A stretch of DNA of 63,384 nucleotides from Blastocatellia bacterium (GTDB lineage Bacteria > Acidobacteriota > Blastocatellia > UBA7656): contig DASXSR010000288.1 in assembly GCA_036505875.1 (NCBI GenBank), forward strand, positions 1-63,384. Reading direction: 5' to 3'. Under the pieces are notes generated by a model that worked only from the letters and a program-made list of their open reading frames with translations, did not search any database and was not told the DNA's origin. Position numbers and translations under genes: made by a program. Shown in pieces: positions 4,123 through 59,893 of this stretch (position 1 is its first letter; each line of letters starts with the position of its first letter).

Positions 4123-5421
4123 TCAGTCCTCCTCCAGCCGAATCAGAGCCGAGTGCGCGTGCGCGTCCAAACCTTCGGCGTTTGCCAATGCCGCGATCAA
4201 CGGGGCCGTTCGATCAAGCTCGGCAGCCGTGAACTTCAAGATGCTCGTCCGCTTCAGAAAATCATTCACGCTCAGCGCCGATGAGAATCGCGCGGCGCCT
4301 GCGGTTGGCAAGACGTGATTTGGTCCGGCCAGGTAATCGCCGGCTGCAACCGGAGTGTGTGAACCAAAGAAGATCGCGCCTGCGTTGTAGATTCGCGAGG
4401 CGACCGCCTCTTCGTCGCGCGCGATTATCTCCAGATGCTCAGGGGCAAGGTCGCTCGCCAGTGCGCACGCCTCTTCCATTTGATCAACGACGATGATCGC
4501 TCCGTAGTTTTCAAGCGATGTGGTGAAAACATCGCTGCGTTGCAGCTTGCGAGCCTGCTTCGCAACCTCGACGGCGACTTCACGAGCAAGCGTTTCACTA
4601 GTAGTAATCAAAATTGCCGAAGCGTCGTCGCCGTGCTCAGCTTGTGCAAGCAGATCACTAGCTACAAATGACGCGCGAGCGTTGTCGTCCGCGACGACAA
4701 CGACTTCGCTGGGCCCGGCGATCGAATCAATGCCCACCACGCCAAATACCAGCTTCTTTGCCGCCGCAACGTAGCGGTTTCCTGGTCCAGTGATCTTATC
4801 TACGCGAGGAACAGTCTCCGTGCCGAACGCTAACGCGGCGATTGCTTGCGCCCCGCCAATGGCGTAGGCCTCAGTGACGCCGAGTTCGACAACGGCCGCT
4901 GCCACCGCTGGACTCTCTTGAAGCGTCTGCGGAGGGGTAGCTATCACAATGCGGTCGACGCCCGCGACTTGTGCAGGCACGACGTTCATCACAACCGACG
5001 ACGGATAGCTCGCGAGCCCCCCAGGCACATACAACCCCGCCCGTTGGACGGGCGTCAGTCGCTGGCCCAACCGCACGCCGCTTTCGGTTTCGACTTCCCA
5101 CGAATCCTGACGCTCTGATTCGTGAAAAGCCCGCACCCTGCGAATTGCCTCGCGCAGGGCCTCCAGCACCTGGCCATCGACTCGCGCTGCCGAACGTTGC
5201 AATGTCTCCTCGCTCACGCGAAGCTCAGCGGCGCTCATTACACAACCGTCAAACCGCGCGCTGTATTCGATGAGCGCGGCGTCACCCCGGTCTCGCACGT
5301 CCTGGATGATTGAGCCGACCCGGTTCATGAGATCAGCATCCAGCGCAACGCTTCGTTCGCGGATGCGCGCCAGCTTTGCACCCAGTCGCTCGGTTTCTCG
5401 GCTGTGAATGATCTCAATCAT
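4123..5421 (-). CDS. hisD: Histidinol dehydrogenase HisD
   Basis: 432-aa ORF with YVPGG.A.YPSSV.M, GPGN.YV..AK and AQAEHD-like AQAEHGDD motifs. Confidence 0.94.
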   Translation of the reverse strand: MIEIIHSRETERLGAKLARIRERSVALDADLMNRVGSIIQDVRDRGDAALIEYSARFDGCVMSAAELRVSEETLQRSAARVDGQVLEALREAIRRVRAFHESERQDSWEVETESGVRLGQRLTPVQRAGLYVPGGLASYPSSVVMNVVPAQVAGVDRIVIATPPQTLQESPAVAAAVVELGVTEAYAIGGAQAIAALAFGTETVPRVDKITGPGNRYVAAAKKLVFGVVGIDSIAGPSEVVVVADDNARASFVASDLLAQAEHGDDASAILITTSETLAREVAVEVAKQARKLQRSDVFTTSLENYGAIIVVDQMEEACALASDLAPEHLEIIARDEEAVASRIYNAGAIFFGSHTPVAAGDYLAGPNHVLPTAGAARFSSALSVNDFLKRTSILKFTAAELDRTAPLIAALANAEGLDAHAHSALIRLEED

Positions 5422-5440: not shown

Positions 5441-5533
5441 AGTTTCGTAGTACCGCATTTATGCGGAAGTTTGTTGGCGTAATATTCTCGTCTCAACCCT
5501 ACGAACTTCCGCATAAATGCGGTACTACGAACC
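5441..5533. repeat. Long inverted repeat with a nested palindrome, lying between hisG and hisD
   Basis: Arms TTCGTAGTACCGCATTTATGCGGAAGTT (5443-5470) and AACTTCCGCATAAATGCGGTACTACGAA (about 5503-5530) are perfectly complementary over 28 bp, separated by a ~30-nt loop. Each arm carries its own palindrome, CCGCAT-TT-ATGCGG. The right arm overlaps the hisG stop codon. Confidence 0.9.
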
Positions 5534-6145
5534 TTTCAGAGAATTGATCAGCTCGCCGATAGCAGCCGCCTTCAGTTGGTAGCTTGCGCGGTTGACGATC
5601 AGACGCGCGGTTGATTCGGTGATAACTTCGAGCATCGCGAGTCCATTCTCACTGAGGGTCCTGCCGGTTTCCACCAGGTCAACGATGCAGTCGGCGAGTC
5701 CCAGAAGCGGCGCAAGCTCGACTGATCCGGACAGCTCGATCAGCTCGACCGGGATACCGCGAGCGCCAAAATGCTCGGCGGCGATTCGCGGATACTTTGT
5801 AGCTACCCTAACCACGCCCAGCCCATCCAGTGAGATGCCCGCCCGCGCGGCTACCGCGACGCGACAGCGGCCTATCTCGAGGGCGAGCGGCTGCAATACG
5901 TCGGCCTCGCTTTCGAGCAGCACGTCACGGCCTACTATTCCGCAATCTGCAATCCCATGCTCTACATACACCGGCACGTCCGACGGTTTAACGGGGATGA
6001 ACCGGCAACAGCCCGCCTCGTCTTCGAGAATCAGACGCCGCGACGAGAGCGCATCGCTCGACACTCGAAGCCCTGCGTGGGCAAGCAGCTCGAACGCTTC
6101 AGCCTGCAATCTTCCCTTAGCGATTGCGATCGTGAGGTCTGTCAA
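5525..6145 (-). CDS. hisG: ATP phosphoribosyltransferase, short form HisG. A TTG start at 6145 is preferred; the ORF is open up to 6238.
   Basis: The ORF contains LTIAIAKGRL, IPVKPSDVPVYVE.G.AD.GIVG.D and VATKYP. GAGGAG lies about 8 nt upstream of the TTG at 6145. The short length and the adjacent hisZ fit the HisG(S)/HisZ system. Confidence 0.85.
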   Translation of the reverse strand: MTDLTIAIAKGRLQAEAFELLAHAGLRVSSDALSSRRLILEDEAGCCRFIPVKPSDVPVYVEHGIADCGIVGRDVLLESEADVLQPLALEIGRCRVAVAARAGISLDGLGVVRVATKYPRIAAEHFGARGIPVELIELSGSVELAPLLGLADCIVDLVETGRTLSENGLAMLEVITESTARLIVNRASYQLKAAAIGELINSLKGS

Positions 6146-6228
6146 CTTTTCATCTCCTCGTCCGGATTGGCCGCCCCTGTCAGCATTGGAACTCGCTCCA
6201 TAATTGAACGGCGGGCACAGGGGCCGCC

Positions 6229-7344
6229 CTACAGGCACACTCGAATCCGCGCATCCTCAGCGCGGCGATTCATTGCCTCTTGAAAGAGCAGCGCAGGGTC
6301 GTCGTTCGAGAGTCGGGACGCTTCCCGTTGCGGCGCGCGAGTCGAGCCTAGGTCTCGTTTGCGCGCCACCAGCAAATCCGCCAGCGCTTCAAGATCAAGT
6401 ACAAAGCCTATCGCCGGCTCAGCCTTGCCGAACTTTGCAGTCAGGGCATCATACCGACCGCCGCTGCCGATCCTCGCGCCGGCCCCGGCAACATAGACTT
6501 TGAAAGTCAGACCGGTGTAATAGTCGAGCCTGGAAACGTCTCCAAGATCGATCTCAAAATGATCGGCGAGACCAAGCGACTCTATAACGCGCCACAAGCT
6601 TTCAAGATGATCCAAACCGTTGACCGAGCGCGGATTTGTAATAACTCTACGAGCTTTGTCCAGCGTGTCGCGTTTTCCGGCGAGTTGCGTCAACCGCACG
6701 AAGGCGCGGCGGTCACCGGCGGAAGCGTGAGGAGTCAGAAAGCGTTCGAGTTCCACGGCGTCGCGAGCATCGATCAGCTGCCGCATTTCATCTCGAGCTG
6801 ACGCATCGAGTGCGAGATTCGCCGCAACGCCGTTAAAGATCTCGACGTCGTTGAGCGTGATCACAAAGTCTTGGCCGAGACCCAGACGATCGAGGATCTC
6901 CGAAGCAATTACCAATAACTCGACGTCTGCCGCGAGCGAGTTTGCGCCGGTAAGCTCGCAGCCGATCTGTGTCAACTCTCTACGCCATTCCGCGCGCGTT
7001 CGCGGCTGTTGGCGGAACACCGACGCAGCGTAGCATAGACGCAAGGGCCTTTCGCTGGACGCAAACAGCGTTGCCGCCGCGCGCGCCACTGCCGAGGTGA
7101 CGTCGGGCCTCAAAGCCAGGAGCCGCCCGTCTGTGTCGGTGAACCTGAACGCGTGATGAGATTCCGAGTGGCCCATCGCTCGATCAAACAACGAATAGTA
7201 GTCCACTGTCGGCGTCGCGATCTCTTCGTAGGACCAGCCGTCAAGCACCGACATCGCGGTGTCTTCGATGCTGCGTCTCAGCCGTGCTTCGCGCCCGAAG
7301 TAATAACGAAGGCCGCCGGGAATTTGAGAGAGTGCCTCGGACAT
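6229..7344 (-). CDS. hisZ: ATP phosphoribosyltransferase regulatory subunit HisZ (HisRS paralogue). The ATG at 7344 is preferred; an alternative TTG lies at 7362.
   Basis: The ORF shows class II aaRS-like motifs (P.G.RYYF, LR.D.T..VAR, FR.E.PQ-like, GGRYD.L) but has no anticodon-binding domain. It is the first gene of the his operon. Confidence 0.85.
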   Translation of the reverse strand: MSEALSQIPGGLRYYFGREARLRRSIEDTAMSVLDGWSYEEIATPTVDYYSLFDRAMGHSESHHAFRFTDTDGRLLALRPDVTSAVARAAATLFASSERPLRLCYAASVFRQQPRTRAEWRRELTQIGCELTGANSLAADVELLVIASEILDRLGLGQDFVITLNDVEIFNGVAANLALDASARDEMRQLIDARDAVELERFLTPHASAGDRRAFVRLTQLAGKRDTLDKARRVITNPRSVNGLDHLESLWRVIESLGLADHFEIDLGDVSRLDYYTGLTFKVYVAGAGARIGSGGRYDALTAKFGKAEPAIGFVLDLEALADLLVARKRDLGSTRAPQREASRLSNDDPALLFQEAMNRRAEDARIRVCL

Positions 7345-7360
7345 AAAACTCCGATCTGTC

Positions 7361-7404
7361 AAAACGAAAACCCGCTGTCTGCGTTCGCGCTGGACAGCGG
7401 GTTT
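7361..7404 (-). terminator. Intrinsic terminator (attenuator) between the His leader ORF and hisZ
   Basis: The minus-strand RNA reads AAACCCGCUGUC-(13-nt loop)-GACAGCGGGUUU followed by UCGUUUUG. The 12-bp stem uses 7393-7404 and 7368-7379. It ends about 16 nt before the hisZ ATG. Confidence 0.75.
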
Positions 7405-7428
7405 CTGGTTTCCAGTTGTGACTTTGCT

Positions 7429-9397: not shown

Positions 9398-9502
9398 GCG
9401 TGATTCGTGAAGCGTGACCCGAGATTCGTGATTGAGCACGTAGTAACGAATTCATTCGTTCTGTCGACAACAAACGAATGAATTCGTTACTACGTGCTCA
9501 AT
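9398..9502. repeat. Heptamer tract fused to a nested-palindrome inverted repeat
   Basis: Positions 9398-9436 have 7-nt periodicity: CGTGATT CGTGAAG CGTGACC CGAGATT CGTGATT. After that, ATTGAGCACGTAGTAACGAATTCATTCGTT (9431-9460) is perfectly complementary over 30 bp to 9473-9502. The inner palindrome is ACGAAT-TC-ATTCGT and the loop is cTGTCGACAaca. Confidence 0.9.
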
Positions 9503-9516
9503 CGTCCGCAACATTC

Positions 9517-14142: not shown

Positions 14143-14661
14143 ATGCGGTACGTTGAATTGCCAATTGGAGATCGCGCGCCTGAGGTGTTCAACGTCGTGG
14201 TGGAAATACCAAAGGGCAGCGTCAACAAGTACGAGTACGACGCCAAGCTAAACGTTTTCCGGCTGGACCGAACTCTGTATTCGCCGATTCATTATCCAGG
14301 CGACTATGGGTTCGTCCCTTCGACCGTTGCGCGCGATGGCGATCCGCTGGACGCGCTGGTGCTGGTCGAGAGCGCGTCATTTTCGGGCTGCGTCATCGAG
14401 GCGCGAGCTCTGGGTTTGCTTGCGATGGTCGATCAGGGCGTTGAAGACCTGAAACTGCTTTGTGTGCCAACCGAGGATCCGCGGCAGGAGACTGTTCAGA
14501 ATTTCAGCGACATCGAGCCTCACCGACTCCGTGAAATAGAATACTTCTTTGGGATCTACAAAGAACTGGAGGGAAAGGAGACGGAAACTCGTGGCTGGCG
14601 CAGCGCCGAAGAAGCAAGAAAAGCGATCGAGCTGGCGAGCGCGCAATTCAAGAAGAAATGA
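14143..14661 (+). CDS. ppa: Inorganic pyrophosphatase (family I). The start at 14143 is preferred.
   Basis: The product has VVVEIPKGS.NKYEYD, Y.P..YGF.P.T...DGDPLD.LV and DEG..D.K-like motifs. Confidence 0.92.
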   Translation: MRYVELPIGDRAPEVFNVVVEIPKGSVNKYEYDAKLNVFRLDRTLYSPIHYPGDYGFVPSTVARDGDPLDALVLVESASFSGCVIEARALGLLAMVDQGVEDLKLLCVPTEDPRQETVQNFSDIEPHRLREIEYFFGIYKELEGKETETRGWRSAEEARKAIELASAQFKKK

Positions 14662-14719
14662 TTCGTGATTCGTGATTCGTTATTCGTTCACAAATCACGT
14701 ATCACGTATCACGAATCAC
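14661..14719. repeat. Heptamer-built hairpin (CGTGATT type) between the convergent ppa and DUF4388-J-TPR genes
   Basis: GTGATTCGTGAT (14665-14676) is perfectly complementary to ATCACGAATCAC (14708-14719). The inner part continues with 7-nt periodicity (TTCGTTA TTCGT / ACGTATC ACGTATC) and has periodic mismatches. Confidence 0.85.
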
Positions 14720-14722
14720 TTC

Positions 14723-16357
14723 TCACTTCTTAAAAATCTTTTTCGCGATCGAGCCGACGTCGGATTTCCAAATGCTGGCTTGAGCGAGATCGGTTTTGAG
14801 GCCGCCGCCGTTGGTTTCTCGCCGCGCCACGCGGTTGTCGGGATCGAGTTGAAGCGCCTCGTGAAAATAATGCTCAGCCCTCTTGAGCAATCCAGCTTGC
14901 TTGTATAACAGCCCAAGCTTAGCTCGAATCTGCGCGTTGTAAGGCTCGAGCTCGGCCGCCTTTGACAAGTGCCCCTCTGCTTCACGGCGAGTGCGAGGGT
15001 TTCGGATCAGGGCTATGCCCAGATGAAAGTGATAGGCCGCGCGCGTTGAATCCAACTTGATCGCTTCTCGAAGCAGGTGAACTGCTGCGTGATATTCCTT
15101 TCTCTCAAATCGCGCGCGCCCTTGATTGTAGTAAAGCTCGGCCATCTGCGCGGGCGGGAGATGAGGCTCAGTCTTGCGCGCGAGAGGGATTGCTTCGACT
15201 GCCGGCGCTGCAGCGGCGGCCGTCGTCGCCTCGACGACTTCTCCTTGTGTTTCTGCGTTGAGGTCGCCGCTCGGCATTCGCAGATCATCATATGACTTGG
15301 ACTCGCTCCCCGACCCGGTCGGCACTCTCGATTGATCCTTTGCTCTAATTTTTTCGTCGTACGCCGCGCGTGCCGCAGGGTGGTTTAGAGTGTCGTATGC
15401 CTGAGTCATCAACGCAAACAGCGCCTCAAGCATGTTACGCAAATCACCCACGTCACGACGGCCGTATCGGTCCGGATGATATTTCTTGGCGAGATGATAG
15501 TAGGCTGCCTTTACCTCTGCCATTGTGGACTGACGCGTCACTTCCAACACGTCGTAATAATCGCCAGTCGTGCTGAAATGCAGCTTGCGAGCAACGTCCT
15601 CGCGCAAGTGCTCTAACGACTCTTCATCCTGGCCGTCAGCTTCATCGTGCAGGTCTCCGTTGCGACCGGCGAGCTTCAGGAACCCGGCAGCGATCAACGC
15701 GCAAACCGCGCGATGCGCGTCGGCTTCTCCAAGCCCGCTCAACGGTCCCACCTCGCTGACCGGGGTGGGCGATTCGATCCGCGACAAGATATAGCTCTCT
15801 GTTGGAATCAGCTTGCCCGAGTCGGCGCCGAGACCGTTGGTCGTCGCTCGAATCACAACTCCGTCGCGGGGCGCAAGCGCTTCAGCCGCCCGCTCGACCT
15901 CCGCCGCACGACGCGCTCCTTCCAATAGCACCTCGGCCGCGGTCATCTTCAGCATCACATCGTGAGCAGTTCGGATCCGCGGGTCAAACGCGTAATCGCC
16001 CTCAGTCCATTCGAACAGTGACAGTATAATGCCCATCGCCTGAGAGCGAACCAACTCCTGCATCTGCTCGTCTTCCAGGAGACCCATCTCGACCAGCACA
16101 GGGCCGAGCCGGTTGGTCTTCCCCCCGCGCTGCTTGGCCTGCTCGATCACCTCGAAAGAGAGCAGTCCTTCCTTTACGAGTTTGTGATCGAGCTGCTCGG
16201 TTGTAATGTTGCTGATTGCGAAGGTAGGCGCGCCGTCCTCGAAGAAAATCGCCTTGATTACTTTGCCGCGCGACAACCGCAGCAGGCCGCTTGAGTTCTG
16301 TTGAGCTAACTCTCGAATGAGATTCGGGAGAAGTTTTTCGCCGAGCTGTCCCTGCAC
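14723..16357 (-). CDS. DUF4388 (PATAN-like) + J-domain + TPR protein
   Basis: The N-terminus reads L.NLIRELAQQNSSGLLRL..G...KAIFFEDG, which is DUF4388-like. The central region DYYDVLEV......EVKAAYY.LAKKYHPDR is a J domain. The C-terminus has TPR-like helices (YYNQGRA...Y..A...L.EA..LD). Confidence 0.75.
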   Translation of the reverse strand: MQGQLGEKLLPNLIRELAQQNSSGLLRLSRGKVIKAIFFEDGAPTFAISNITTEQLDHKLVKEGLLSFEVIEQAKQRGGKTNRLGPVLVEMGLLEDEQMQELVRSQAMGIILSLFEWTEGDYAFDPRIRTAHDVMLKMTAAEVLLEGARRAAEVERAAEALAPRDGVVIRATTNGLGADSGKLIPTESYILSRIESPTPVSEVGPLSGLGEADAHRAVCALIAAGFLKLAGRNGDLHDEADGQDEESLEHLREDVARKLHFSTTGDYYDVLEVTRQSTMAEVKAAYYHLAKKYHPDRYGRRDVGDLRNMLEALFALMTQAYDTLNHPAARAAYDEKIRAKDQSRVPTGSGSESKSYDDLRMPSGDLNAETQGEVVEATTAAAAAPAVEAIPLARKTEPHLPPAQMAELYYNQGRARFERKEYHAAVHLLREAIKLDSTRAAYHFHLGIALIRNPRTRREAEGHLSKAAELEPYNAQIRAKLGLLYKQAGLLKRAEHYFHEALQLDPDNRVARRETNGGGLKTDLAQASIWKSDVGSIAKKIFKK

Positions 16358-21219: not shown

Positions 21220-22083
21220 TTACCAATTTGATGCGGCCGCGCCTGGCATTCCTCGCTTTTGATAAAGACAGCTTTCCGTGTCAAGCGGGGCATAGCAATC
21301 TTCATGCGGCATCGACTCGATTGATTCAGCGGGACCCAGCGCGAGCACCCCAAAGCGGCTGAGGCTTTCGTAAATCAGTTTGTCGACCCGCTCCTTCAGT
21401 CTCTGATTGAAACTGCCGAGAATGCCTCGGCAAACGACAACTTGAAACTCGTTGAACGAGCCGTCAGTCGCAAGATTGTGTTCGGAAAAGACGATGTTCT
21501 TCTTGAGCGCCGGATCGATCAGCGCGCGTTTGCCTTTCTTACTGAAGTACTGCGATAACGACCACTTTCCGCCCGAGCTCCGGTAATTAGCGGCACACTT
21601 ATCGGGAAGCGAGAGCGAAAAGCTTCCGACACGCGCCTGACCTATCGCGCGGGTGCTCATATCAGTGGCGTAGATGCGTGACCGCTCATACAGGCCCTCT
21701 TCCTTGAGCAGAATCGCCATCGAGTAAACGTCCTCACCCGTCGAGCAGCCTGCGTGCCAGATGCGGACGAAAGGATAAGTCCTCAACTGCGGAACGACCT
21801 TCGTTCTGAAGGTATTGTAAAACGCGGGATCCGAGAACATCGAAAGATCGCGCAGAGAGAAGGCGCCCAGCAACCGCTCCAACAAAGCAGGCTCGCGAAG
21901 CACCTTCTCTTGAAAACGCGATATGGTCGGGATACGGCCCGCCAGCATGCGCTCGCGGATTCGGAGTCTCACCGCCCCGCGATCGTAATCCCGGAGATCG
22001 TAGCCGTAATAACGAAATACGGCTTCGAGCAACAAGTCGATTTCCAGTTCTTCCAGATTGTCGTTCGTCACGTTGTCACTCAT
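21220..22083 (-). CDS. cheR: CheR-type protein-glutamate O-methyltransferase
   Basis: The product has an N-terminal helical CheR domain ([20 protein letters not shown]), an SAM-binding motif ([18 protein letters not shown]) and IYATD. The start at 22083 (MSDNV) makes an ATGA overlap with the upstream kinase stop. Confidence 0.85.
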
Positions 22084-25000
22084 GCCCGCGCTGCTTTGCT
22101 GCCGTAGAGCCAGACCCGCAACATCGACAGCAGTTGGTCGATGTCCAGCGGTTTGGAAATGTAATCTGACGCTCCCGCCTCGATGCACTTGTCGCGGTCC
22201 GCTTTCATCGCCTTGGCCGTCAATGCGATGATCGGCAGCTCGGCGAGGCTCTCTATCTTGCGGATCGCCTGCATTGTCTCGTAGCCGTCCAACTCCGGCA
22301 TCATGATGTCCATCAACACTACGTCGATGCCTGGAATTTGCTGCAACAACTTTATGCCTTCGCGCCCGTCCTCCGCATAGAAGACTTCCATCTGATAGCT
22401 TTCCAGGGTGCTGGACAGCGCGAATATGTTGCGGACGTCGTCGTCCACAATCAGAACTTTCTTGCCCGCAAGCACCGGGTCTTGCCGCATCACCTCTTGA
22501 ATCATCCGGCGTTTGGGTTCCGGCATGTTGGCTTCCACGCGATGCAGGAAGAGTGCTGTTTCAGCAAGCAGTCTCTCGGGCGAATTGACCTCCTTTACCA
22601 CTATCGCGTCGGCGACTTGCCTCAACTGGCTCTCTTCCTTTTCGGTGAGGTCCTTGCCGGTGTACACGATTATTGGAAGGTCGTTTTGACCAAGCTCCCT
22701 CTGAATCTTATCGATCAATTCGAAGCCGCTGATGTCAGGCAATCTTAGATCCAGAACCATGCAATCGAATTGCTGGGCCTTGAGCGCTTCGAGTGCCTCG
22801 GACGCCGTAGCAACGCCGACCGTATCAACGTCTCCGCCGCCGATCAGCTCGATGATGCTCATCCGTTGGGCGTCATCGTCCTCCACAACAAGCAGCCGCT
22901 TCACGTCTCGCTGTGAAAACGCGGCGATCTGATCGAACGCTTCTGCGAGTTGCTCCCGAGAGACCGGCTTTTGCAAGTGCATAAACGCGCCGAACGCGCG
23001 AGGATGACGCGCCTGCTCGTACGCGGTAATCACGTGCACCGGAATGTGGCTCGTTTGCGGATCGTGCTTTAAACGATCGAGCACAGTCCAGCCCTCCTGA
23101 TCCGGCAGTTTGATATCCAGCGTTATCGCATCGGGCTTGTACTTGCGCGCGAGCGTCAACGCGACATCACCGCGCGCCGCAACCAGCCCTTTGAAACCCT
23201 TCTCGTGCGCGAGATCGAGGAGGATCTGCGCGAACAAGGCATCATCTTCTACGATCAGCACGATTCGCTCTCCGGGCGCGATGTTAGCGCGATCGTCGGC
23301 GATCTCTATTACTTCGCTGTATTCGGCAACCGGAAACGGACTGACGCTCGGAGCATTCCGCGCAAGTACAGCGGCAAGGCCATAGCTCGCTTGCGATGAG
23401 ACCCGCCCCGAGGTCTTGTGGGCGCGCGGCAAATAGAGGGTGAACGTGCTGCCTTCTCCGGCCGCGCTGGCGACTCGGATCTCGCCTCCGAGCAGTCGCG
23501 CAATTTCACGGCTGATCGACAGTCCCAGCCCTGTGCCGCCGTACTTGCGACTGGTCGTGCCATCGGCCTGCTGGAACGGTTCGAAGATTATCTGCTGCTT
23601 GTCTGCCGGAATCCCGATCCCGGTATCCGTCACCGAGAAGGCCACAACCAGGTCTGCCAGGTTGAGACTGTCCATTGCGAAGTGGCCGCGTTTTTCGACC
23701 GTCTTTATTTGAAGCGAGACTCGCCCGCGGTCGGTGAACTTGAAGGCGTTTGACAGCAGATTTTTGAGGACCTGTTGCAACCGCTTCTGGTCCGTCGAGA
23801 GCGTTGCAGGCATGTTGGGCTCCATTTCAATTGCGAAGTCCAATCCCTTGTCCTGCGCAATCTGATGGAAGCTGCGATTCATCTGTTCCATTACATCGAT
23901 GAATGGAACATCGGCAGTTTCGATCGCCAACATCCCCGACTCGATCTTCGACAGATCCAGAATGTCGTTGATCAGTGAAAGCAGATCGTTGCCCGAAGAG
24001 TGAATCGTCTCAGCGAACTGGACCTGTTTCGGCGTTAGCGTAGACTCCGTGTTCTCCGCGAGCTGACGTGACAGGATCAACATGCTGTTGAGCGGAGTCC
24101 TCAACTCGTGAGACATGTTGGCGAGGAATTCAGACTTGTATTTCGAAGTGAGCGCGAGCTGTTCGGCTTTTTCTTCCATCGCCCAGCGCGCCTCCTCGAC
24201 CTCGCGGTTCTTGGCTTCGACTTCCGACTTTTGCTGAGCGAGAAGCGTTGCTTTCTCCTTCAGCTCTTCGTTTGTGTTTTGCAGCTCTTCCTGTTGGCTG
24301 CGCAGTCGCTCCTCCGACTCGCGGAGGCTCAGGGCTTGCTGTTCGAGCCGCTCGTTGGTCTTCTTCAGCTCATCCTGTTGGCTCTGCAGTTCTGTGGCCA
24401 GCGACTGTGACTGGATCAACAGCCGCTCGGTTCGCGTGTTCGCCTCAATCGTGTTCAGCACGATTCCGATGCTTTCGGTCAGCGTATCCAGGAAGGTTAC
24501 GTGAACCTCACTGAAACGATTGAAGGAAGCGAGTTCGATGACCGCCTTTACTTCCTCCTCGAACAACACCGGCAAGACGATGATGTTGAGCGGCGGGGCC
24601 TCGCCCAACCCCGAGCTGACAAAGATGTAATCGTTGGGGACGTTGGTCAGCATTATGCGCTTCTTCTCCAACACGCACTGTCCGACGATCCCCTCTCCGG
24701 TCCTAAACTCGTTCGAGAGGTTCTTGCGATTCGAGTAAGCATAACCGCCGAGCAGCCTCATCAGCGTTTGCCCTTCCGCCTCGGGCTGGTTTACATAGAA
24801 CACGCCTTGTTGCGCATCGACCAGGGGCGCCAGTTCCGAAAGGATCATGTTGGCGACCGTTGTCATGTCGCGCTGGCCTTGAAGCATTCCTGTGAACCGC
24901 GCGAGGTTGGTCTTGAGCCAATCTTGCTCGGTGTTCTTCTGGGTGGTGTCTTTGAGGTTGCGGATCATCTCGTTGATGTTGTCTTTGAGGGCCGCGACCT

Positions 25001-28000
25001 CGCCTTGCGCCTCGACTGCAATCGAGCGGGTGAGGTCCCCCTGCGTGACCGCCGTCGCGACCTCGGCGATGGCTCGCACCTGGTTTGTAAGGTTCGCTGC
25101 GAGCTGGTTCACGTTGTCGGTCAAGTCTCTCCAGGTGCCGTAAGCACCCGGCACGTTCGCTTGCCCGCCGAGCTTGCCTTCGACGCCGACCTCGCGCGCC
25201 ACGGTCGTCACCTGATCTGCGAAAGTCGCCAGGGTGTCGGTCATGGCGTTGATTGTGTTGGCCAACTCGGCGATCTCGCCTTTCGATTCGATGGTCAGCT
25301 TACGGTTCAATTCACCGTTTGCGACTGCCGTCACGACGCGGGCGATGCCGCGCACCTGGCCGGTTAAGTTGCCGGCCATGAAGTTGACGTTGTCGGTCAG
25401 GTCCTTCCAGGTGCCGGCGACGCCCTTCACGTCAGCCTGTCCGCCAAGCTTGCCTTCGGTTCCAACTTCGCGCGCCACGCGCGTCACTTCAGACGCAAAC
25501 GAGTTGAGCTGGTCGACCATAACGTTGATCGTGTTCTTCAGTTCGAGAATCTCTCCCTTAACGTCGACGGTTATCTTCTTCGACAGGTCGCCGTTGGCGA
25601 CGGCCGTGGTCACCTCGGCGATGTTACGAACCTGCGCGGTCAGGTTGCTGGCCATGAAATTCACGTTGTCGGTCAGGTCCTTCCACGTGCCGGCGACGCC
25701 GCGCACGTCGGCCTGTCCGCCGAGCTTGCCTTCGGTGCCGACCTCGCGCGCCACGCGAGTGACTTCCGACGCGAACGCGTTGAGCTGGTCGACCATGACG
25801 TTGATCACTTCTTTGATCTGAAGAATCTCGCCGCGCACGTCTACGGTAATCTTCTGCGTTAGGTCGCCGTTTGCAATGGCGGTTGCAACCTTAGACATAT
25901 CGCGAAGCTGAACAGTGAGGTTGCCGGCCATCAGATTCACGTTGTCAGTCAAGTCCTTCCATGTGCCGGCGACGCCCGCGACCTGCGCCTGCCCACCGAG
26001 TTTGCCTTCGGTTCCGACTTCGCGCGCCACACGAGTGACTTCGGAAGCGAACGCGTTAAGCTGGTCCACCATTCGGTTGATCGTGTTCTTCAACTCAAGA
26101 ATTTCGCCCTTAACATCGACGGTGATCTTCTTCGACAGATCGCCGTTGGCGACCGCCGTTGTGACCTCTGCGATGTTTCTCACCTGAGCGGTAAGGTTGC
26201 CGGCCATGAAGTTCACGCTGTCGGTCAGGTCCTTCCACGTGCCGGCGACTCCGGGCACTTGAGCTTGCCCGCCGAGCTTGCCTTCAGTTCCAACCTCGCG
26301 CGCCACGCGCGTCACTTCGGATGCAAACGAGTTGAGCTGATCGACCATTCGATTGATCGTGTTCTTTAGTTCTAGAATCTCACCCTTTACGTCGACTGTG
26401 ATTTTCTTCGAAAGGTCGCCGTTAGCCACAGCGGTTGTGACCTCGGCGATGTTGCGGACCTGTCCGGTTAAGTTGCCGGCCATCGAGTTGACGCTGTCGG
26501 TCAGGTCCTTCCAGGTTCCGCCCACACCGCGCACGTCGGCCTGGCCGCCAAGCTTGCCCTCAGTTCCGACCTCTCTCGCCACGCGTGTTACTTCGGAAGC
26601 GAACGAGTTGAGCTGATCAACCATTCGATTGATTGTGTTCTTGAGCTCAAGAATCTCGCCCTTAACGTCTACGGTTATTTTCTTCGACAGGTCGCCGTTG
26701 GCGACGGCCGTTGTCACTTCGGCGATGTTTCTCACTTGGCCTGTCAGGTTCCCGGCCATCGAGTTAACGTTATCGGTCAAGTCTTTCCACGTACCTGCGA
26801 CATCAGGCACGATAGCTTGACCGCCGAGCTTGCCTTCCGTTCCTACTTCCCTCGCAACGCGTGTTACTTCCGACGCGAACGCGTTAAGCTGGTCGACCAT
26901 GACGTTGATGGTGTTCTTCAATTCAAGAATCTCGCCTTTCACGTCGACGGTGATTTTCTTAGAAAGGTCGCCTTTGGCCACCGCGGTAGTCACATCAGCG
27001 ATGTTGCGCACTTGAGCGGTAAGGTTCCCGGCCATCGAGTTGACGCTGTCGGTCAGATCCTTCCACGTGCCACCCAACCCACGCACGTCGGCTTGGCCGC
27101 CGAGCTTCCCTTCGGTCCCGACCTCACGAGCGACGCGGGTGACCTCGGAAGCGAACGAGTTAAGCTGATCGACCATAACGTTGATCGTGTTCTTCAGCTC
27201 GAGGATTTCGCCTCTCACGTCAACGGTAATCTTCTTTGAAAGGTCGCCCTTTGCGACTGCGGTTGTCACCTCGGCGATGTTTCTCACCTGAGCCGTCAGG
27301 TTGCCGGCCATGAAGTTGACGTTGTCGGTCAGGTCTTTCCAAGTGCCGGCGACTCCGGGCACTTCCGCTTGCCCGCCGAGCTTGCCTTCGGTTCCGACTT
27401 CTCTCGCAACGCGCGTAACTTCCGACGCAAACGAGTTGAGCTGATCGACCATCCGGTTGATCGTGTTCTTCAGCTCAAGAATCTCGCCCTTCACGTCGAC
27501 CGTGATCTTCTTTGAGAGGTCGCCATTAGCCACGGCGGTCGTGACCTCGGCAATGTTTCTCACCTGCCCGGTCAAGTTTCCGGCCATCGAGTTAACGTTA
27601 TCGGTGAGATCTTTCCAGGTTCCTGCGACTCCACGAACTTGAGCCTGTCCGCCGAGCTTGCCTTCGGTACCGACTTCTCTGGCGACGCGCGTCACCTCCG
27701 AAGCGAATGAGTTGAGCTGGTCGACCATTCGATTGATCGTGTTCTTCAGCTCGAGGATTTCGCCCTTCACGTCGACCGTGATTTTCTTCGACAGGTCGCC
27801 GTTGGCCACGGCGGTCGTGACTTCGGCGATGTTCCTCACTTGCCCGGTGAGGTTGCCGGCCATCGAGTTCACGTTGTCAGTCAGGTCCTTCCACGTGCCG
27901 GCAACATCCGGCACAACGGCTTGGCCGCCGAGCTTGCCTTCAGTTCCCACTTCTCTTGCGACGCGAGTGACTTCGGAAGCGAACGCGTTGAGCTGGTCAA

Positions 28001-29039
28001 CCATCGTGTTGATTGTGTTCTTGAGCTCGAGGATTTCACCTCGCACGTCGACGGTGACCTTCTTCGACAGGTCGCCGCGGGCTACCGCGGTTGTCACTTC
28101 TGCGATGTTGCGCACTTGAGCAGTCAGGTTGCCGGCCATCGAGTTGACGCTGTCGGTCAGGTCCTTCCAACTGCCCGCGACGCCTTTCACTTTCGCCTCG
28201 CCGCCCAACTTGCCTTCGGTTCCAACTTCTCTAGCAACGCGCGTGACCTCCGAGGCGAACGACCCAAGCTGTCCGACCATAGCATTGACCAGCTTGACCG
28301 ATCGCAGGAAATCACCTCTCAGCGGTCTGCCGTCTACTTCCAACGCCATGGTCTGAGAGAGATCCCCGTTTGCAACCGCGCCAATCACGCGGGCCATCTC
28401 GGTCGTCGGTCGAACCATATCGTCAATGAGAGTGTTGACCGAGTCGATCAAGCTTCGCCACGAGCCGTCAGCCGAGGGCAGCATCGCCCGCTGAGCGATC
28501 TTGCCTTCTTTGCCGACCACTCGGCTCACGCGTTCGAGTTCTCTCGTCAGCCTGTCATTACGGCCGATCACTTCATTAAGAGTGTCGGCAATCTTGCCGG
28601 GAATACCGACCCAATCGTCAGGCAGGCGCACCGAGAAGTCCCCCTTCTTAAGGGCGACCACAGTCTTCAGCAATTCTCTGTCGTTAGGCGATTTGGTGAC
28701 CGCGCCGTCAGCCGCTTGTTTAGCTTTGGGCCTGGCCATGATATCGACGATAGAATTGATTGACTTGAATGATTTCGCCCAGGAACCCTTCGCGGCCGGC
28801 AGCTTCCCGTTTCTTGTGATCTTTTGATCCTTACTTGCGGCTTTGCTTACGCGGTCAAGCTCGCTCGCAAGCTTTGAGTTGAGAGTCGCTACATCATTAA
28901 AGGCTCTCGCGATCTCGCGCTCGACGCCGGTGGACTTCTCAGAAAGCCGCGCGGAGAAGTCGCCTTTCTTTAAAGCCGTCAGCGCCTGCAGCAATTGGCT
29001 GCTGTCTATAGTATTGGTGATCGCTTCCGGATTTGGCAT
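22080..29039 (-). CDS. Giant soluble poly-HAMP hybrid sensor kinase: N-terminal HAMP-like units, about 12 x 92-aa HAMP repeats, GAF, coiled coil, HisKA-HATPase and 3 x REC
   Basis: The ORF has no N-terminal TM segment. The repeated unit is [19 protein letters not shown]...[58 protein letters not shown]. An H-box ([14 protein letters not shown]), N/G boxes and three D-containing REC domains follow. The start at 29039 (MPNPE, preceded by AAGGGGG) is preferred over 29072. Confidence 0.9.
24950..28250. repeat. Tandem 276-bp (92-codon) coding repeat, about 12 copies, inside the poly-HAMP kinase gene
   Basis: I counted 92 aa from one EVTRVAREV to the next. The first unit starts at about aa 275 of the ORF (about nt 28250). 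The twelfth, most divergent unit ends near nt 24950. Confidence 0.85.
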
Positions 29040-29209
29040 TGAACCCCCTTTTGGTATCTCACGACACACCACACCTCTTCGGCTGGCGAATGAATCGCGG
29101 GCCGTCCAGTTCGATAAGGTCTATGCGAACGGTCTTTCGGTGGCAAGAGACGAAACTACCGCTTAAGTAAGGACTGGTAGAAATTTGCGACACCGCTAAG
29201 GGTATCGAG

Positions 29210-31313: not shown

Positions 31314-32138
31314 TCAGATAACAGTCGTGACGATCTCTCTAATACTTCGCTGCAGCTCAAGGTCGTCGGTGATCGGGCTGCTTATGGCCACTTCGCAAGC
31401 CAGATGAGGATGAATGCCGCTGCTCACGAGCTGCGCAGCGTAGACCAGCAATCGGGTCGATACCCCCTCTTCCAGGCCGTGGCCTTTGAGGTTGCGAACC
31501 TTCTGGCCGATGAGCACAAGATCGCGCGCGGTTTGCTCGTCAACCTTTCCCTCGTGGATCAAGACTGCGGCTTCCAAATGCGCCGGAGGATACTCGAACT
31601 CGAGTCCGACAAATCGTTGGCGCGTGGACTGCTTCAAATCCTTGAGAACGCTCTGGTAACCTGGATTATACGAGACGACGAGCATAAACTCGTCGGGCGC
31701 TTGAAGAATCGTGCCGCGCTTTTCGACAGGCAAGATCCTGCGGTCGTCGGTCAGAGGATGAATCAGGACAATCGTGTCTTTGCGGGCCTCGACTACTTCG
31801 TCGAGGTAGCAGATCGCGCCGCTTTTGACGGCTGTTGTGAGGGGGCCGTCGTGCCAGACGGTCTCATCGCCTTCCAACAGAAAACGTCCGACAAGATCGG
31901 TCGCCGATAAGTCTTCGTGACAAGCGACGGTTATCAGAGGACGATTCAAACGCCACGCCATGTACTCGATGAAACGGGTCTTGCCGCAACCCGTCGGCCC
32001 TTTCAACATGACCGGCAGCTTCCCACGATGGGCCGCTTCAAACAGACCGACCTCTTCGCCCACCGGCAGATAAAATGGCTCTCGCACGATCGCGTGTTTC
32101 TCGATTGCTTGTTCGACTGTCGCCTGTTCTGCGGTCAT
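31314..32138 (-). CDS. CbbQ/NirQ/NorQ/GvpN-family (MoxR-like) AAA+ ATPase
   Basis: Walker A reads [12 protein letters not shown] and Walker B reads ICYLDEV. The remaining motifs are typical of CbbQ/NorQ ([19 protein letters not shown]). The start at 32138 (MTAEQ) is preferred, because the upstream extension to 32183 only translates the heptamer hairpin. Confidence 0.8.
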
Positions 32139-32143
32139 ATCAG

Positions 32144-32205
32144 TCGTGATTCGTGAAGCGTGATCCGTGATCTGCCGTTTCACGCATCACGGTTCACGCA
32201 TCACC
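32144..32205. repeat. Heptamer-built hairpin (CGTGATT type) in the divergent norQ-like/mnmA intergenic region
   Basis: The left arm GTGATTCGTGAAGCGTGATCCGTGA was compared with the reverse complement of the right arm, GTGATGCGTGAACCGTGATGCGTGA. They match in 6-bp blocks interrupted by a mismatch at every 7th position. The loop is about TCTGCCGTT. Confidence 0.85.
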
Positions 32206-32221
32206 CTTCCTTGTGTATAAT
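32193..32221 (+). promoter_or_regulatory. Candidate sigma-70 promoter of mnmA
   Basis: TTCACG (32193-32198), a 17-nt spacer, then a perfect TATAAT (32216-32221), about 65 nt upstream of the mnmA ATG. The -35 element lies inside the right arm of the heptamer hairpin. Confidence 0.4.
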
Positions 32222-32285
32222 TTCAGATTACTGAACGACCGGAAATCATAGCATCGCGCTGAGGCGCGGGCAAAGACGGCGAGCA

Positions 32286-33380
32286 ATGAATATAGCAGTA
32301 GCGATGAGCGGCGGTGTCGATAGCTCGGTCGCCGCCGCAATACTGAAGCGTCAGGGGCACGAGGTCGTCGGCTTCACGATGCAGTTGTGGAACCAGCGGC
32401 GAAGACTCGCGCCCAACGAAGAGCCGCAGCCCTCGCGCTGTTGCTCGCTGGACGACGTTTACGACGCGCGATGCGTGGCTGAGGATCTGGGCATTCCGTT
32501 CTATGTCCTTAACCTTGAAGACGAATTCGAGCGCGGCGTGGTCCGTCCTTTTGTTGAAGACTATCTCTCCGGCCGGACGCCGATTCCCTGTGTATCCTGC
32601 AACACCAAGCTGAAGTTCGCACGGCTGGTAAAAGTCGCGCGCGAGGTCGGCGCCGAGCGAGTCGCGACCGGGCATTACGCTCGGGTGGAATATGACGAAG
32701 AGACCCGTCGATTCAGGCTTAAGAAGGGTCGTGATCTCTCAAAAGATCAGTCGTACTTCTTGTTCGAGATGACGCAGAAACAGCTTGCGCGCGCGGAGTT
32801 TCCGCTGGGCGAGATGACCAAGAGCGAAGTACGTGACATCGCGCGAGAGCTTGGACTTGAAACCGCCGACAAGCCCGAGAGCCAGGAGATATGCTTCGTG
32901 CCCGACGGCGACTATGCTCGGTTTGTTGAGAATTACGGGCGGCACGAGATGGGCGACTTGAGAATCAGCGGCGGCGAGATCGCGACGGCGGACGGAAGGG
33001 TCATCGGCGAGCACGCGGGTTTGCATCGCTATACCATAGGTCAGCGCCGCGGCATCGGAGTGGCTGCCGGTGAGCCGCTGTACGTGCTGAAGATTGACGT
33101 GCCTCGCAACCAGCTGGTCGTCGGGAAGCGAAGCGAGTTGTATGGAAAATGTCTGACGGCGAGCGGCGTAAACTGGGTGGCGATCGATGATCCCGACGAG
33201 CCGGTGCGAGCGAACGTGCGAATACGCTATCGAGCGAACGAAGCACCGGCGACGATAGCTCCTATCGAAACCAATCGCGTCCGAGTCGAATTTGATGAGC
33301 CTCAGCCTGCGATCAGCCCGGGCCAGGCAGCGGTCTTCTATGACGGCGACGTGCTCGTAGGAGGGGGATGGATAGAGTGA
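32286..33380 (+). CDS. mnmA: tRNA-specific 2-thiouridylase MnmA
   Basis: The product begins [15 protein letters not shown] (PP-loop). It also has CCS..D, NPC..CN...KF and GHYAR motifs. Confidence 0.95.
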
Positions 33381-33397
33381 ATAGTAAAAGCATTGAT

Positions 33398-33482
<85 letters not shown>

Positions 33483-33995
33483 CATCCCTGCTCTTGGTTT
33501 TGGCTGTTTGCCTTTTTAGTTGCTGTGCCTCAAGCCGAGGAGGTGCGTTTCCGGCGGGCGCGGCATTCGGGTCTTGCCCGGTTTGCCATATGAGAGTCAA
33601 AGCGGCTGACGATTGGACGTCGGAAATCTACTATCGCGATGGGACAAAGCTGATGTTCGAGTCGCCGGCGGATATGATGGCGTTTTACACAGAACCGCGT
33701 CGCTATGACGTCGATGCGAGTCATAAGGATTTGAGCAGGGTTGAGAAGGTGACGGTGAAGGATTACCAATCCAGGCGAGTGATCGATGCCGGGGAGGCGA
33801 GCTTCGTCTATAACAGTAACGTCGACGGACCGATGGGGCCGGACTTCATTCCGTTCGGCAGCAGCGAAGCGGCGGAAGCCTTTCTTGCGGCGAACAGCGG
33901 AACGTTGACCTCATTCGGCGATGTAACCGGGGACATGGTTCGAGAGGTGCGAAAGTAAGGGGTAGTCGGAACGATACTTGAGGAACAAGGCTCCG

Positions 33996-42560: not shown

Positions 42561-42619
42561 TTCGTGGTTCGTGATGCGTGATTCGTGACCGGAAAACCCT
42601 TTCACGCATCACGCATCAC
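42559..42619. repeat. Heptamer-built hairpin (CGTGATT type) downstream of the FecR-domain gene
   Basis: The left arm is GATTCGTGGTTCGTGATGCGTGATTCGTGA, the loop is about CCGGAAAACCCTT and the right arm is TCACGCATCACGCATCAC. The arms are complementary with one mismatch over about 18 bp. Confidence 0.85.
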
Positions 42620-48411: not shown

Positions 48412-48708
48412 TTTGATGATTCCTTCGAGAAGCTATTTTACCTTGACCGGGCTGCGCCGTCACAAGCCGCCTAACAGGGAGGATTGCATACTTGACAAGC
48501 AAGTCAGTTATCTAAAGGAGTGGATCGGTTGTAGAAACTGTCGGATAGATAGAAAATCTGATGGTCGATGTCGATCTGGAAGATTTCATCCGTCGTAAGA
48601 TTGAAAGCGGACGTTGGTATCGCGAGCGGTAGCGAGCGTGCAGCACGGCTGAATTCGCAATATCGCTCGCGGGACCCAACCCAATACAACTCAGAAGAGG
48701 AGAAAGAA

Positions 48709-49074
48709 ATGAAATACTTGTTGCTGATTTATGATGCAGAACAGAGTTGGAACTCGCTTAGCGAGTCAGAACGGCAGCAAATCTACGGCGAATATCGACA
48801 GTTGAGAGAGCAGCTTCAGTCCAAAGGACAATTCCTCGGCGGCTCTCAGTTGCAGCCTGTTACGACTGCCACCAGCATCCGTGTTCGCGACGGCAAGGCG
48901 CTCGTGACTGACGGGCCGTTTGCAGAAACTCACGAGCAGCTCGGCGGATATTTCCTGATTGAGGCCAAGGATCTCGATGAGGCCAACGGCATCGCCGCAA
49001 GGATTCCTTCAGCGCGAATGGGCACCGTAGAGGTCCGACCGCTCGTCGAGAGGCCGGCGGAGGCGACGGCTTGA
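48709..49074 (+). CDS. YciI-family (DGPF/COG3795-like) protein
   Basis: The product begins MKYLLLIY. Later regions read L.P...A..VR...G...VTDGPFAE.KE.LGGYF.IEA.DLDEA..IA..P. The SD GAGGAG lies upstream of the ATG at 48709. Confidence 0.85.
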   Translation: MKYLLLIYDAEQSWNSLSESERQQIYGEYRQLREQLQSKGQFLGGSQLQPVTTATSIRVRDGKALVTDGPFAETHEQLGGYFLIEAKDLDEANGIAARIPSARMGTVEVRPLVERPAEATA

Positions 49075-49242
49075 TGCTGTGAGTTCAAACTTTGGTTTGC
49101 TGCTCGACGTCGGCAAGCTGAACCTTCGACTCCAGACACGTTCAGAGTTCATTCTTTTGATTGCCGCTGGATGTCGGCAAGCTGAAGCTTGAACTCTGAA
49201 CACCAAATTGCGCAGCCCGCCAGAATGTGCGACGCTCGCCGT

Positions 49243-59824: not shown

Positions 59825-59829
59825 GATTT

Positions 59830-59887
59830 GTCAGTAGTCAGTAGTCCGTAGTCCGTAGCTACTGACTACGGACTACGGACTACGGAC
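59830..59887. repeat. Heptamer-built near-palindrome (GTAGTCC type) between pstB and phoU
   Basis: GTCAGTA GTCAGTA GTCCGTA GTCCGTA G | C TACTGAC TACGGAC TACGGAC TACGGAC. The centre of symmetry lies at 59858/59859, there is no loop and about 3 positions mismatch. Confidence 0.9.
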
Positions 59888-59893
59888 AAGTGT

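Follow-up and report, generated by a model that had tools for sequence, protein, structure and literature searches.

A contig of a soil bacterium of the Blastocatellia (DASXSR010000288.1 of assembly GCA_036505875.1; positions 1 to 63,384, referred to below as the window) carries, between its genes, long hairpins whose arms are tandem arrays of a 7-nt unit, which raises the question of what these hairpins are, how they are maintained, and whether they do anything for the genes that they separate. They are dispersed intergenic palindromes of the type of the cyanobacterial short tandemly repeated repetitive (STRR) sequences: each arm consists of a tandem 7-nt unit with about five conserved and two variable bases, and the elements fill the dispensable part of a spacer, from the upstream stop codon to just before the next ribosome-binding site. 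The reading that we favor, with a probability of about 0.45, is that these STRR-like heptamer palindromes are built by slippage and arm-to-arm copying and act as untranslated intercistronic RNA hairpins.

Hairpins with heptanucleotide arms in the window

An earlier note, made from the letters of the window, had described five hairpin loci with heptamer arms. Our own detector, which accepts ungapped arms of 18 nt or more with a complementarity of 80% or more and a loop no longer than 30 nt, found seven long hairpins in the 63-kb window, five of which have period-7 arms with a lag-7 self-identity of 0.73–0.92. The remaining two are the REPIN-like element at 5441–5534 and the perfect palindrome at 9430–9503 described below. 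In 15 first-order Markov simulations of the window, the mean was 0.4 long hairpins and no periodic one was obtained. The five periodic hairpins form a true family, far above a composition-matched background, and withstood the frequency comparison proposed in the earlier note. Tandem Repeats Finder placed period-7 arrays on both sides of every center at the five loci (2.6–5.6 copies per arm), and an inverted-repeat search gave arms of 18–41 nt with 85–94% complementarity, so that all five loci are present and built as described. Their predicted RNA folds have energies of −30 to −51 kcal/mol (z −4.9 to −8.5), which none of 200 shuffles equaled. A scan against Rfam 15 returned only three chance-level matches, to miRNA and leader models, at 30–31 bits against gathering scores of 55–95.

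The first hairpin (H1, 14654–14723; like the four that follow, it is listed without a strand) has arms at 14654–14684 and 14693–14723, (TGATTCG)4 and (NATCACG)4, and Tandem Repeats Finder arrays at 14659–14687 (TGATTCG, 4.1 copies) and 14688–14719 (TCACGAA, 4.6 copies). It occupies the entire spacer of two convergent genes, assigned from open reading frames (ORFs) and Pfam, which encode an inorganic pyrophosphatase (PPase) and a DUF4388-DnaJ-TPR protein. The first TGA of its 5′ arm is the PPase stop codon (14659–14661), and its far end abuts the stop codon of the DnaJ-TPR gene (14723–14725, minus strand). The RNA fold is −30.3 kcal/mol on the plus strand and −39.1 kcal/mol on the minus strand. 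GCGATCG motifs near H1 had hinted at a cyanobacterial source, a reading that was rejected because protein homologues assign the window to the Blastocatellia.

The second hairpin (H2, 32146–32204; arrays 32145–32172 and 32180–32204) lies in the divergent norQ/mnmA region, 7 nt from the ATG (32138, minus strand) of a norQ/cbbQ-like AAA gene (Pfam) and upstream of a promoter-like extended −10 box of mnmA, TGTGTATAAT (32213–32222). Its 5′ arm reads CGTGATT, CGTGAAG, CGTGATC, CGTGATC and its 3′ arm TCACGCA, TCACGGT, TCACGCA, TCAC, and it folds into blocks of 5, 6, 6 and 5 bp with single mismatches between them. The 6-bp blocks with single mismatches that had been described for several hairpins are thus exact for H2, and the other hairpins follow the pattern only in part. 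The third (H3, 33390–33483) has 41-nt arms, (CATTTNN)5 and (NNAAATG)5, with arrays at 33391–33429 and 33450–33482 and an RNA fold of −50.6 kcal/mol. It begins 9 nt past the mnmA stop codon, and the nosL lipoprotein gene probably starts at an ATG (33473) within its 3′ arm.

The fourth (H4, 42558–42619; paired arms 42571–42588 and 42602–42619, arrays 42558–42588 and 42602–42619) stands in a FecR-like>VWA operon, and its first array (TGATTCG, TGGTTCG, TGATGCG, TGATTCG, TGA) opens with the stop codon of the FecR/DUF6600 gene (42558–42560). The 3′ end of that gene, whose stop codon opens H4, contains overlapping 6-, 9-, 15- and 39-nt CAG/CAA-rich repeats (42410–42543) encoding a low-complexity Q/H-rich tail. 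The fifth (H5, 59828–59889) has 31-nt arms, (CNGTAGT)4 and (ACTACNG)4, without a loop (arrays 59830–59858 and 59859–59887; RNA fold −39.8 kcal/mol) and lies between the pstB stop codon (59894–59896, minus strand) and the phoU ATG (59822–59824, minus strand), 3–4 nt from each.

A sixth heptamer array, (CGTGANN)5 at 9399–9433 on the plus strand, has no inverted partner and could be what is left of a family member that decayed or was interrupted. Adjoining it is a perfect 31-nt inverted repeat (GATTGAGCACGTAGTAACGAATTCATTCGTT) with a 12-nt loop (9430–9503), unrelated to CGTGANN, which may have been inserted into, or substituted for half of, a heptamer hairpin. Altogether, the heptamer elements of the window are five hairpins and one lone array, fall into three unit families, and are all located between ORFs.

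The contexts given in the earlier note were borne out: convergent genes at PPase/DnaJ-TPR, a divergent region at norQ/mnmA, and operons at mnmA>nosL, FecR-like>VWA and pstB>phoU. All five hairpins lack a canonical U-tract, as had been stated. Spurious ORF extensions, also mentioned there, are seen for ORF 31314–32183, which overruns the ATG at 32138 into H2, and for ORFs 33368–33958 and 32739–33485, which traverse H3.

Placement of the hairpins relative to genes

The wider survey covered about 1.6 Mb of related and pattern-selected DNA. It drew on 80 loci from a metagenome scan with MnmA, six loci (L201–L206) from four look-ups of PhoU homologues, and a genome scan (one genome per species) for the pattern CGTGANNCGTGANNCGTGA, a gap of 3–33 and TCACGNNTCACG, for which about 0.03 chance matches were estimated. 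Loci L081–L200 and the viral loci were chosen by the repeat pattern itself. Genes were called by a longest-ORF heuristic combined with GC content at third codon positions, and the positions relative to genes are approximate.

Among 154 classifiable periodic hairpins, 79% (122) lie between co-directional genes, 13% between divergent genes and 8% between convergent genes, compared with 67%, 17% and 15%, respectively, for all spacers. Only 12 of 183 periodic hairpins fall inside the ORF calls. The distance from the upstream stop codon to the hairpin has a median of 6 nt (interquartile range −2.5 to +29.5), and in 30% of the periodic hairpins the stop codon is within the 5′ arm. Between the 3′ end of a stem and the first in-frame start codon the median is 16 nt with a mode of 10–19 nt, which is just enough room for a Shine-Dalgarno sequence, and GGAG motifs often follow the stem directly.

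A search for a U-tract past the stem gave a mean of 2.35 T per 10 nt on the sense strand versus 3.41 on the antisense strand, with six or more T in 3 of 122 cases. In agreement with the earlier note, canonical intrinsic terminators were therefore ruled out by the missing U-tract and by the wrong context, the hairpins not being enriched between convergent genes. Soil-library contigs labeled as RNA-Seq that cover the region span several genes at flat depth; they are probably DNA and have no readable 3′ ends.

Arm order, stop triplets and co-evolution of the arms

The CGTGANN array precedes the NNTCACG array and is never found reversed: the ratio was 11:0 in loci not selected by unit, 104:0 among the matches listed for the pattern-selected loci, and 10:0 in a scan of all viral contigs. 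For GTAGTNN-first versus reversed the ratio was 5:1. In the AAATG/CATTT family the AAATGNN array came first in 4:0 cases, which places the CATTTNN-first H3 in the rarer orientation.

The leading arm is also the one that carries stop triplets. Stops in all three frames were present in the 5′ arm of 112 of 182 periodic hairpins and in the 3′ arm of 6 of 182, and in families other than CGTGA more stop-containing frames were found in the 5′ arm in 35 cases versus 10 for the 3′ arm (p = 2.5e-4). At the level of the unit, 44 of 76 distinct units contain a stop in the forward sense, where letter-shuffled units give 33.0 ± 3.6 (p = 5e-4), and stops in the reverse sense are depleted (13 of 76, compared with 19.9 ± 3.2). 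In the 5′ arm, G exceeds C in 52 units and the opposite holds in 13. These results indicate a fixed polarity, in which the G-rich, stop-bearing arm comes first and which by symmetry is true on both strands.

CGTGANN arrays are paired in 83–90% of cases and solitary in the rest. Across 104 hairpins of the CGTGANN family, conservation at the five core positions is 93–99% and pairing 93–98%, and the two variable positions are paired in 75% and 65%. Variable positions were complementary in 350 of 532 cases, as compared with 304 ± 8 after permutation within a hairpin and 167 ± 11 after permutation across hairpins. The two arms thus co-evolve.

Hairpins at orthologous sites

The elements were found in related genomes, often at the same site, and the comparison of orthologous spacers that the earlier note had proposed showed that hairpins recur there with differing numbers of units. 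The gene order norQ/mnmA/nosL/dsbD is retained in loci with at least 70% MnmA identity. Beside the norQ ATG, a CGTGANN/NNTCACG hairpin is present in L001, L003–L005, L007, L010 and L014, with a different number of units in each. In L006 a period-10 (AACACAGATG) hairpin occupies the same place in the norQ-mnmA spacer, and in L008 mainly one arm is left. Among the MnmA loci, the more distant relatives have no hairpin in this spacer. In L005 and L011 (just upstream of position 10001) a different long palindrome lies inside the loop of the CGTGANN hairpin. The L011 loop palindrome (GGGGCGGCC…GGCCGCCCC type) reappears downstream of phoU in L201 (4660–4863), which points to a separate family of GC-rich palindromes, resembling repetitive extragenic palindromes (REPs), that nest into heptamer hairpins in such genomes.

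Downstream of mnmA, CATTTNN hairpins were found in L005, L012, L014 and L019, 8-mer (GACGCGGC) hairpins in L003, L004 and L008, and hairpins with the units GCAGAAG, GGGNAAA and CAGTAGG in L016 and relatives at about 66% MnmA identity; L007, L015 and L017 have no hairpin at this position. The pstB-phoU spacer, by comparison, contains a long repeat-armed hairpin (−31 to −90 kcal/mol) in every case examined, namely the window and L201–L206, whose PhoU homologues are 76–100% identical and labeled Blastocatellia. All of these hairpins begin 3–6 nt past the TAA and reach to, or stop just short of, a GGAG motif and the ATG, and their units are GTAGTCC in the window, GTTCAGA in L201, L202 and L204, CAGTGGT in L203, a mixture in L205 and GCAGTGG in L206. 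In the two spacers around mnmA, arrays of period 7, 8 and 10 occur at the same sites in sister lineages. Over a shorter distance, two units (14 nt) around the loop of H1 are missing from a contig with about 94% identity to the window.

The extended −10 box TGTGTATAAT near H2 is itself strongly conserved at the same place in L001–L032 (window 32213–32285). It is followed on its 3′ side by a conserved mnmA leader (GGAAATCATAGCATCGCG…GCGCGGGCAAAGA), which is kept where the neighboring hairpins have wholly turned over. The leader has no Rfam match, and its fold is no better than that of shuffles (z −1.4).

Distribution across phyla and phages

The genome scan matched at least 120 loci. According to record titles, the matches listed comprise Chloroflexota (74), Bacteroidota including the Salinibacter group (17), Acidobacteriota (12), Proteobacteria in the wide sense (6), Verrucomicrobiota (3), Gemmatimonadota (2), Planctomycetota, Nitrospirota, Calditrichota and Vulcanimicrobiota (1 each) and unclassified bacteria (2); the proportions carry little meaning, because only matches listed were counted and the labels of metagenome-assembled genomes can be wrong. 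The 8-kb blocks around the matches listed contain 226 long hairpins, 138 of period 7, 12 of period 8, 4 of period 9 and 72 aperiodic, and none of the 226 has arms of period 4–6. Other unit families in these blocks include GAGATTG, AGTGAAC, CGGTAAT, GTAGTCN, CGTATTG, GGTAATTG and TGGCTAGA. The three heptamer types of the earlier note hold for the window but not beyond it, where there are dozens of families, mainly of period 7 and a few of period 8–10.

Viral contigs were matched by the CGTGANN-first pattern in 10 cases and by the GTAGTNN-first pattern in 5, and by two arbitrary controls, CGAGTNN-first and TGCGANN-first, in 11 (GGCGAGT family) and 2 cases, respectively. The control-core matches are genuine heptamer hairpins of other families. 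Because both controls match real hairpins, CGTGA is one family among very many, which weakens the idea that phyla share CGTGA as a unique conserved core bound by a factor (11 and 2 viral contigs versus 10). The class is defined by its architecture and not by one sequence.

In two soil metagenome runs (X1 and X2), contigs from unrelated places match H1 (14661–14757) in its repeat arm only, where the depth reaches 152 and 74, against about 5 on the flanks.

A proposed mechanism and its alternatives

In the favored reading, replication slippage would add and remove units, and template switching within the palindrome would copy one arm onto the other, so that the arms would stay complementary while the unit sequence drifts. 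Slippage and arm copying are suggested by the co-evolution of the arms, the 14-nt difference at H1 and the turnover at orthologous sites, and they would explain why a hairpin is kept at such sites despite changes in unit sequence, number and period. Once transcribed, the element would form a stable intercistronic or 3′ mRNA hairpin closed from either side to ribosomes, which would be barred from the stem because the leading arm has stop triplets in all three frames. Ribosomes would be released at the foot of the hairpin, and the hairpin could then block 3′-to-5′ exonucleases and may set the relative expression of the neighboring cistrons: structure near a stop codon could lower the output of the upstream gene, as with REP elements, and the hairpin could insulate the downstream gene or limit initiation there. 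The G-rich-first order might conceivably avoid exposing a C-rich single strand to Rho. A role at the level of the mRNA is favored because of the excess of stop triplets beyond composition, the exact placement, and the retention at pstB-phoU despite sequence turnover. According to the work of Liang et al. (2015), as cited in PMC12306157, REPs at most 15 nt from a stop codon stall ribosomes and lower translation, and for STRR hairpins a role in transcript stability or translational coupling has been proposed (PMC2670836).

Several observations weigh against this reading. There is no G·U signature on the sense strand (71 would-be G·U versus 85 A·C mismatches, p = 0.30), and pairing in the transcribed strand is no better than in its complement. 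The loss of the post-mnmA hairpin in three relatives and the decay to one arm in L008 indicate that a hairpin is not essential at a given site. H3 is oriented the other way round and lies over a start codon, so that no single rule fits all members. The placement figures depend on crude gene calls, and loci L081–L200 were selected by the pattern that they display. Moreover, the exact filling from stop codon to Shine-Dalgarno sequence is equally expected of an expanding neutral element trimmed at both ends, and the stop-first polarity could arise if arrays were born by duplication of 7 nt including a stop codon.

These last points lead to the main alternative, possible though less probable, that the elements are neutral, self-propagating DNA palindromes without a function of their own, in which slippage amplifies 7 nt including the stop codon, harmlessly for the protein, a fold-back template switch makes the inverted copy, slippage and arm-to-arm correction maintain the element, and selection only trims it near the stop codon and the next ribosome-binding site. 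Such a history would account for the arm order, for the stop codon being part of the array in 30% of hairpins, for the filling of precisely the free part of the spacers, for the missing G·U bias and for the decay or loss in some relatives; the many unrelated unit families, including the real hairpins matched by both control cores, likewise speak against any single sequence-specific factor. Heptamers are also over-represented among bacterial simple repeats, possibly through a slippage preference of the polymerase (Mrazek 2007, as cited in a passage of PMC4692102). However, purely local birth does not predict that a small set of unit families should turn up repeatedly at numerous unlinked loci and in different phyla, and the CGTGANN layout of five conserved and two variable positions is constant in more than 100 hairpins of different phyla. 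Neutrality also sits poorly with the pstB-phoU hairpin retained in every relative examined despite replaced units, with periods of 7, 8 and 10 at one site in sister lineages, which suggest recurrent gain at favored sites, and with compact phage contigs that carry hairpins, often several per contig. A view at the other extreme, which we consider unlikely, is that the hairpins serve across phyla as one functional class of translation-proof insulators between cistrons, in which selection and not mutation fixes the stop-bearing, G-rich-arm-first order, so that ribosomes are kept out of the stem and Rho meets no C-rich single strand. Building the stem from repeats would then be an adaptation that allows pairing in many registers and self-rebuilding by slippage, and in the stronger form of this view some families, such as CGTGAT(C/T), would be read by a conserved trans-factor. 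In the tail of the 16S rRNA, AUCAC stands directly 5′ of the anti-Shine-Dalgarno sequence, and the GUGAU(C) of that unit is its complement.

Two further alternatives appear very improbable. Long, U-tract-less "I-shaped" hairpins have been proposed as terminators for high-GC bacteria, and the present hairpins might be such non-canonical, factor-independent terminators or attenuators. Very stable stems directly past stop codons, and H1 between convergent genes, would fit this proposal, and termination has been suggested for one cyanobacterial STRR hairpin (PMC2670836). However, the T content past the stem is lower on the sense strand than on the antisense strand, convergent pairs are not enriched (8% vs 15%) and co-directional pairs are (79% vs 67%), some pairs are conserved operon junctions (pstB-phoU), some hairpins lie in divergent promoter regions (H2), and a canonical U-tract terminator exists elsewhere in the window (7361–7411). 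Alternatively, and with equally little probability in our view, the elements could act at the DNA level, as miniature mobile palindromes spread by an enzyme (REPIN/RAYT-like) or as arrays of sites for a DNA-binding or cruciform-recognizing protein. Dispersed many-copy families, soil contigs with differing flanks that pile up only on the H1 arm, the palindromes nested in the L005 and L011 loops as in REPIN clusters, strand-symmetric mismatches, the presence on phage contigs and a separate REPIN-like element in the window (5441–5534) all agree with this. Conversely, the copies share only the unit, with no full-length consensus or defined ends, the number of units is different at every site, and the units, unlike REPs, are not palindromic themselves. 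Dozens of families would require dozens of enzymes or binding proteins, a 7-bp spacing places successive sites on different faces of B-DNA, and the fact that stop triplets are more frequent than composition predicts speaks for translation instead.

Resemblances of single units to known sites were also considered. CGTGATC units in the window (32159–32172) contain GTGATC, which complements the GAUCAC before the anti-Shine-Dalgarno sequence. CGTGAAA and TTTCACG, seen in the Chloroflexota loci (within L081–L200), equal the conserved halves of parS (TGTTTCAC|GTGAAACA) in the opposite order; the reverse, abutting parS arrangement never occurs here, and parS half-sites were rejected. Both resemblances are probably coincidence, given the multitude of unrelated unit families. 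CRP-like GTGA…TCAC sites, integron attC and CRISPR were set aside on inspection only, as their architecture does not fit.

Relation to known repeat elements

The hairpins resemble STRR sequences in their tandem 7-nt units, their intergenic and often intercistronic location, the presence of several families per genome, and the ability of inverted arrays to form a hairpin. CGTGANN, CATTTNN and GTAGTCN are not known among the STRR1–3 units, and the unit GTCATTG on the L011 contig is a rotation of STRR2 (TTGGTCA). The present host is a member of the Blastocatellia (Acidobacteriota) and not a filamentous or heterocystous cyanobacterium, the present class extends to Chloroflexota, Bacteroidota, Verrucomicrobiota, Gemmatimonadota and phages, and the present arrays are nearly all paired into hairpins (83–90%). 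STRR hairpins have been described as "not unusual in filamentous cyanobacteria", with examples in the hupS-hupL spacer and upstream of hoxW, and roles in stability, translational coupling or termination have only been suggested for them (PMC2670836). The comparison with STRR arrays drawn in the earlier note is thus apt, as these form hairpins too. Its further suggestion that self-complementary heptamer arrays are an undescribed class did not stand, since such arrays had been reported in cyanobacteria (PMC2670836) and in Xanthomonas (PMC4692102). For STRR sequences, no report of a fixed arm order, of stops in all frames or of anchoring at stop codons was found in the literature.

In Xanthomonas, some GGGAATC heptamer arrays are inverted and can fold into stem-loops (PMC4692102). 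However, the GGGAATC arrays of Xanthomonas and the GGGGAYT arrays of Nostoc are mostly one-armed direct arrays that have been read as G-quadruplex formers (PMC4692102), whereas the present arrays are almost always inverted pairs and not prone to form G-quadruplexes. The TAACTGA repeats of Beggiatoaceae, some cyanobacteria and Bacteroidetes are likewise heptamers in spacers near start codons, with stops in all frames in one orientation only, which limits their location, and with a patchy spread across phyla (PMC4679880). They differ in being direct repeats of a single unit without predicted structure, with one inverted case among 170 sets (PMC4679880).

The REP, bacterial interspersed mosaic element (BIME) and REPIN elements of Proteobacteria are similar as dispersed extragenic palindromes that lie in operon spacers or after stop codons, form long mRNA or single-stranded DNA hairpins, and nest; in a loose sense, two inverted arrays also make one long extragenic hairpin. 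In the REP literature, REPs lying at most 15 nt from a stop codon lower upstream translation, and REPs also stabilize upstream mRNA (PMC3116915; PMC12306157). A REP unit, however, is about 20–40 nt long, is itself palindromic, has a full-length consensus and is linked to RAYT, whereas the present units are non-palindromic, 7 nt long and variable in number per site, without a full-length consensus. Intrinsic terminators share a stable hairpin soon after a stop codon, but the present hairpins have no U-tract, have repeat stems of 18–44 bp and mostly lie within co-directional pairs.

A full-text search, within the literature that could be searched, gave nothing relevant on the present repeat strings or on heptanucleotide repeats in Acidobacteria. 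What is already known is the hairpin-forming heptamer arrays of cyanobacteria, which have been little studied. Apparently new are the range of hosts, the almost obligatory pairing of arrays into hairpins, the fixed order of the arms together with stops in all frames, the anchoring at stop codons and the turnover of units at conserved sites.

Other repeats in the window

The REPIN-like element at 5441–5534 consists of two inverted GTAGTA-CCGCATTTATGCGG copies (a GTAG motif followed by a small palindrome) 20 nt apart, between the minus-strand ORFs 4123–5421 and 5525–6238 (−54 kcal/mol, z −9.4). No further copies of it were found in the window or the surveyed loci. At 49066–49212, between ORFs 48568–49074 and 49189–50490, two adjacent stem-loops stand on a direct repeat of about 70 nt (…GTCGGCAAGCTGAA…GTTCAGAGTTCA…; −56.5 kcal/mol, z −4.4), and their GTTCAGA motif is the same as the unit of the pstB-phoU hairpin in L201, L202 and L204. 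Finally, a tandem repeat of 276 bp (10.6 copies, 80% identity, 25341–28262) lies in ORF 22080–29072 (minus strand, 2330 aa), which encodes a giant protein with 92-residue repeats.

Implications

For annotation, the hairpins produce false ORF extensions and wrong start codons, of which norQ and nosL are the examples shown here. They occur commonly in Acidobacteriota, Chloroflexota and Bacteroidota, phyla that dominate soil and sludge and are mostly known from metagenomes. Heptamer repeats also draw pile-ups of unrelated contigs and are likely to break or mis-join metagenome assemblies.

The placement and arm order amount to a simple, testable rule, in which the stop-bearing arm comes first, the foot is at the stop codon and the element ends before the Shine-Dalgarno sequence. 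The rule concerns intercistronic elements to whose relatives in cyanobacteria no function has been assigned since 1990. Should the rule stem from mutation alone, these elements would be a clean natural case of concerted evolution between the arms of a palindrome. Should it stem from function, they would represent a general means by which poorly studied phyla set the expression ratios inside operons.

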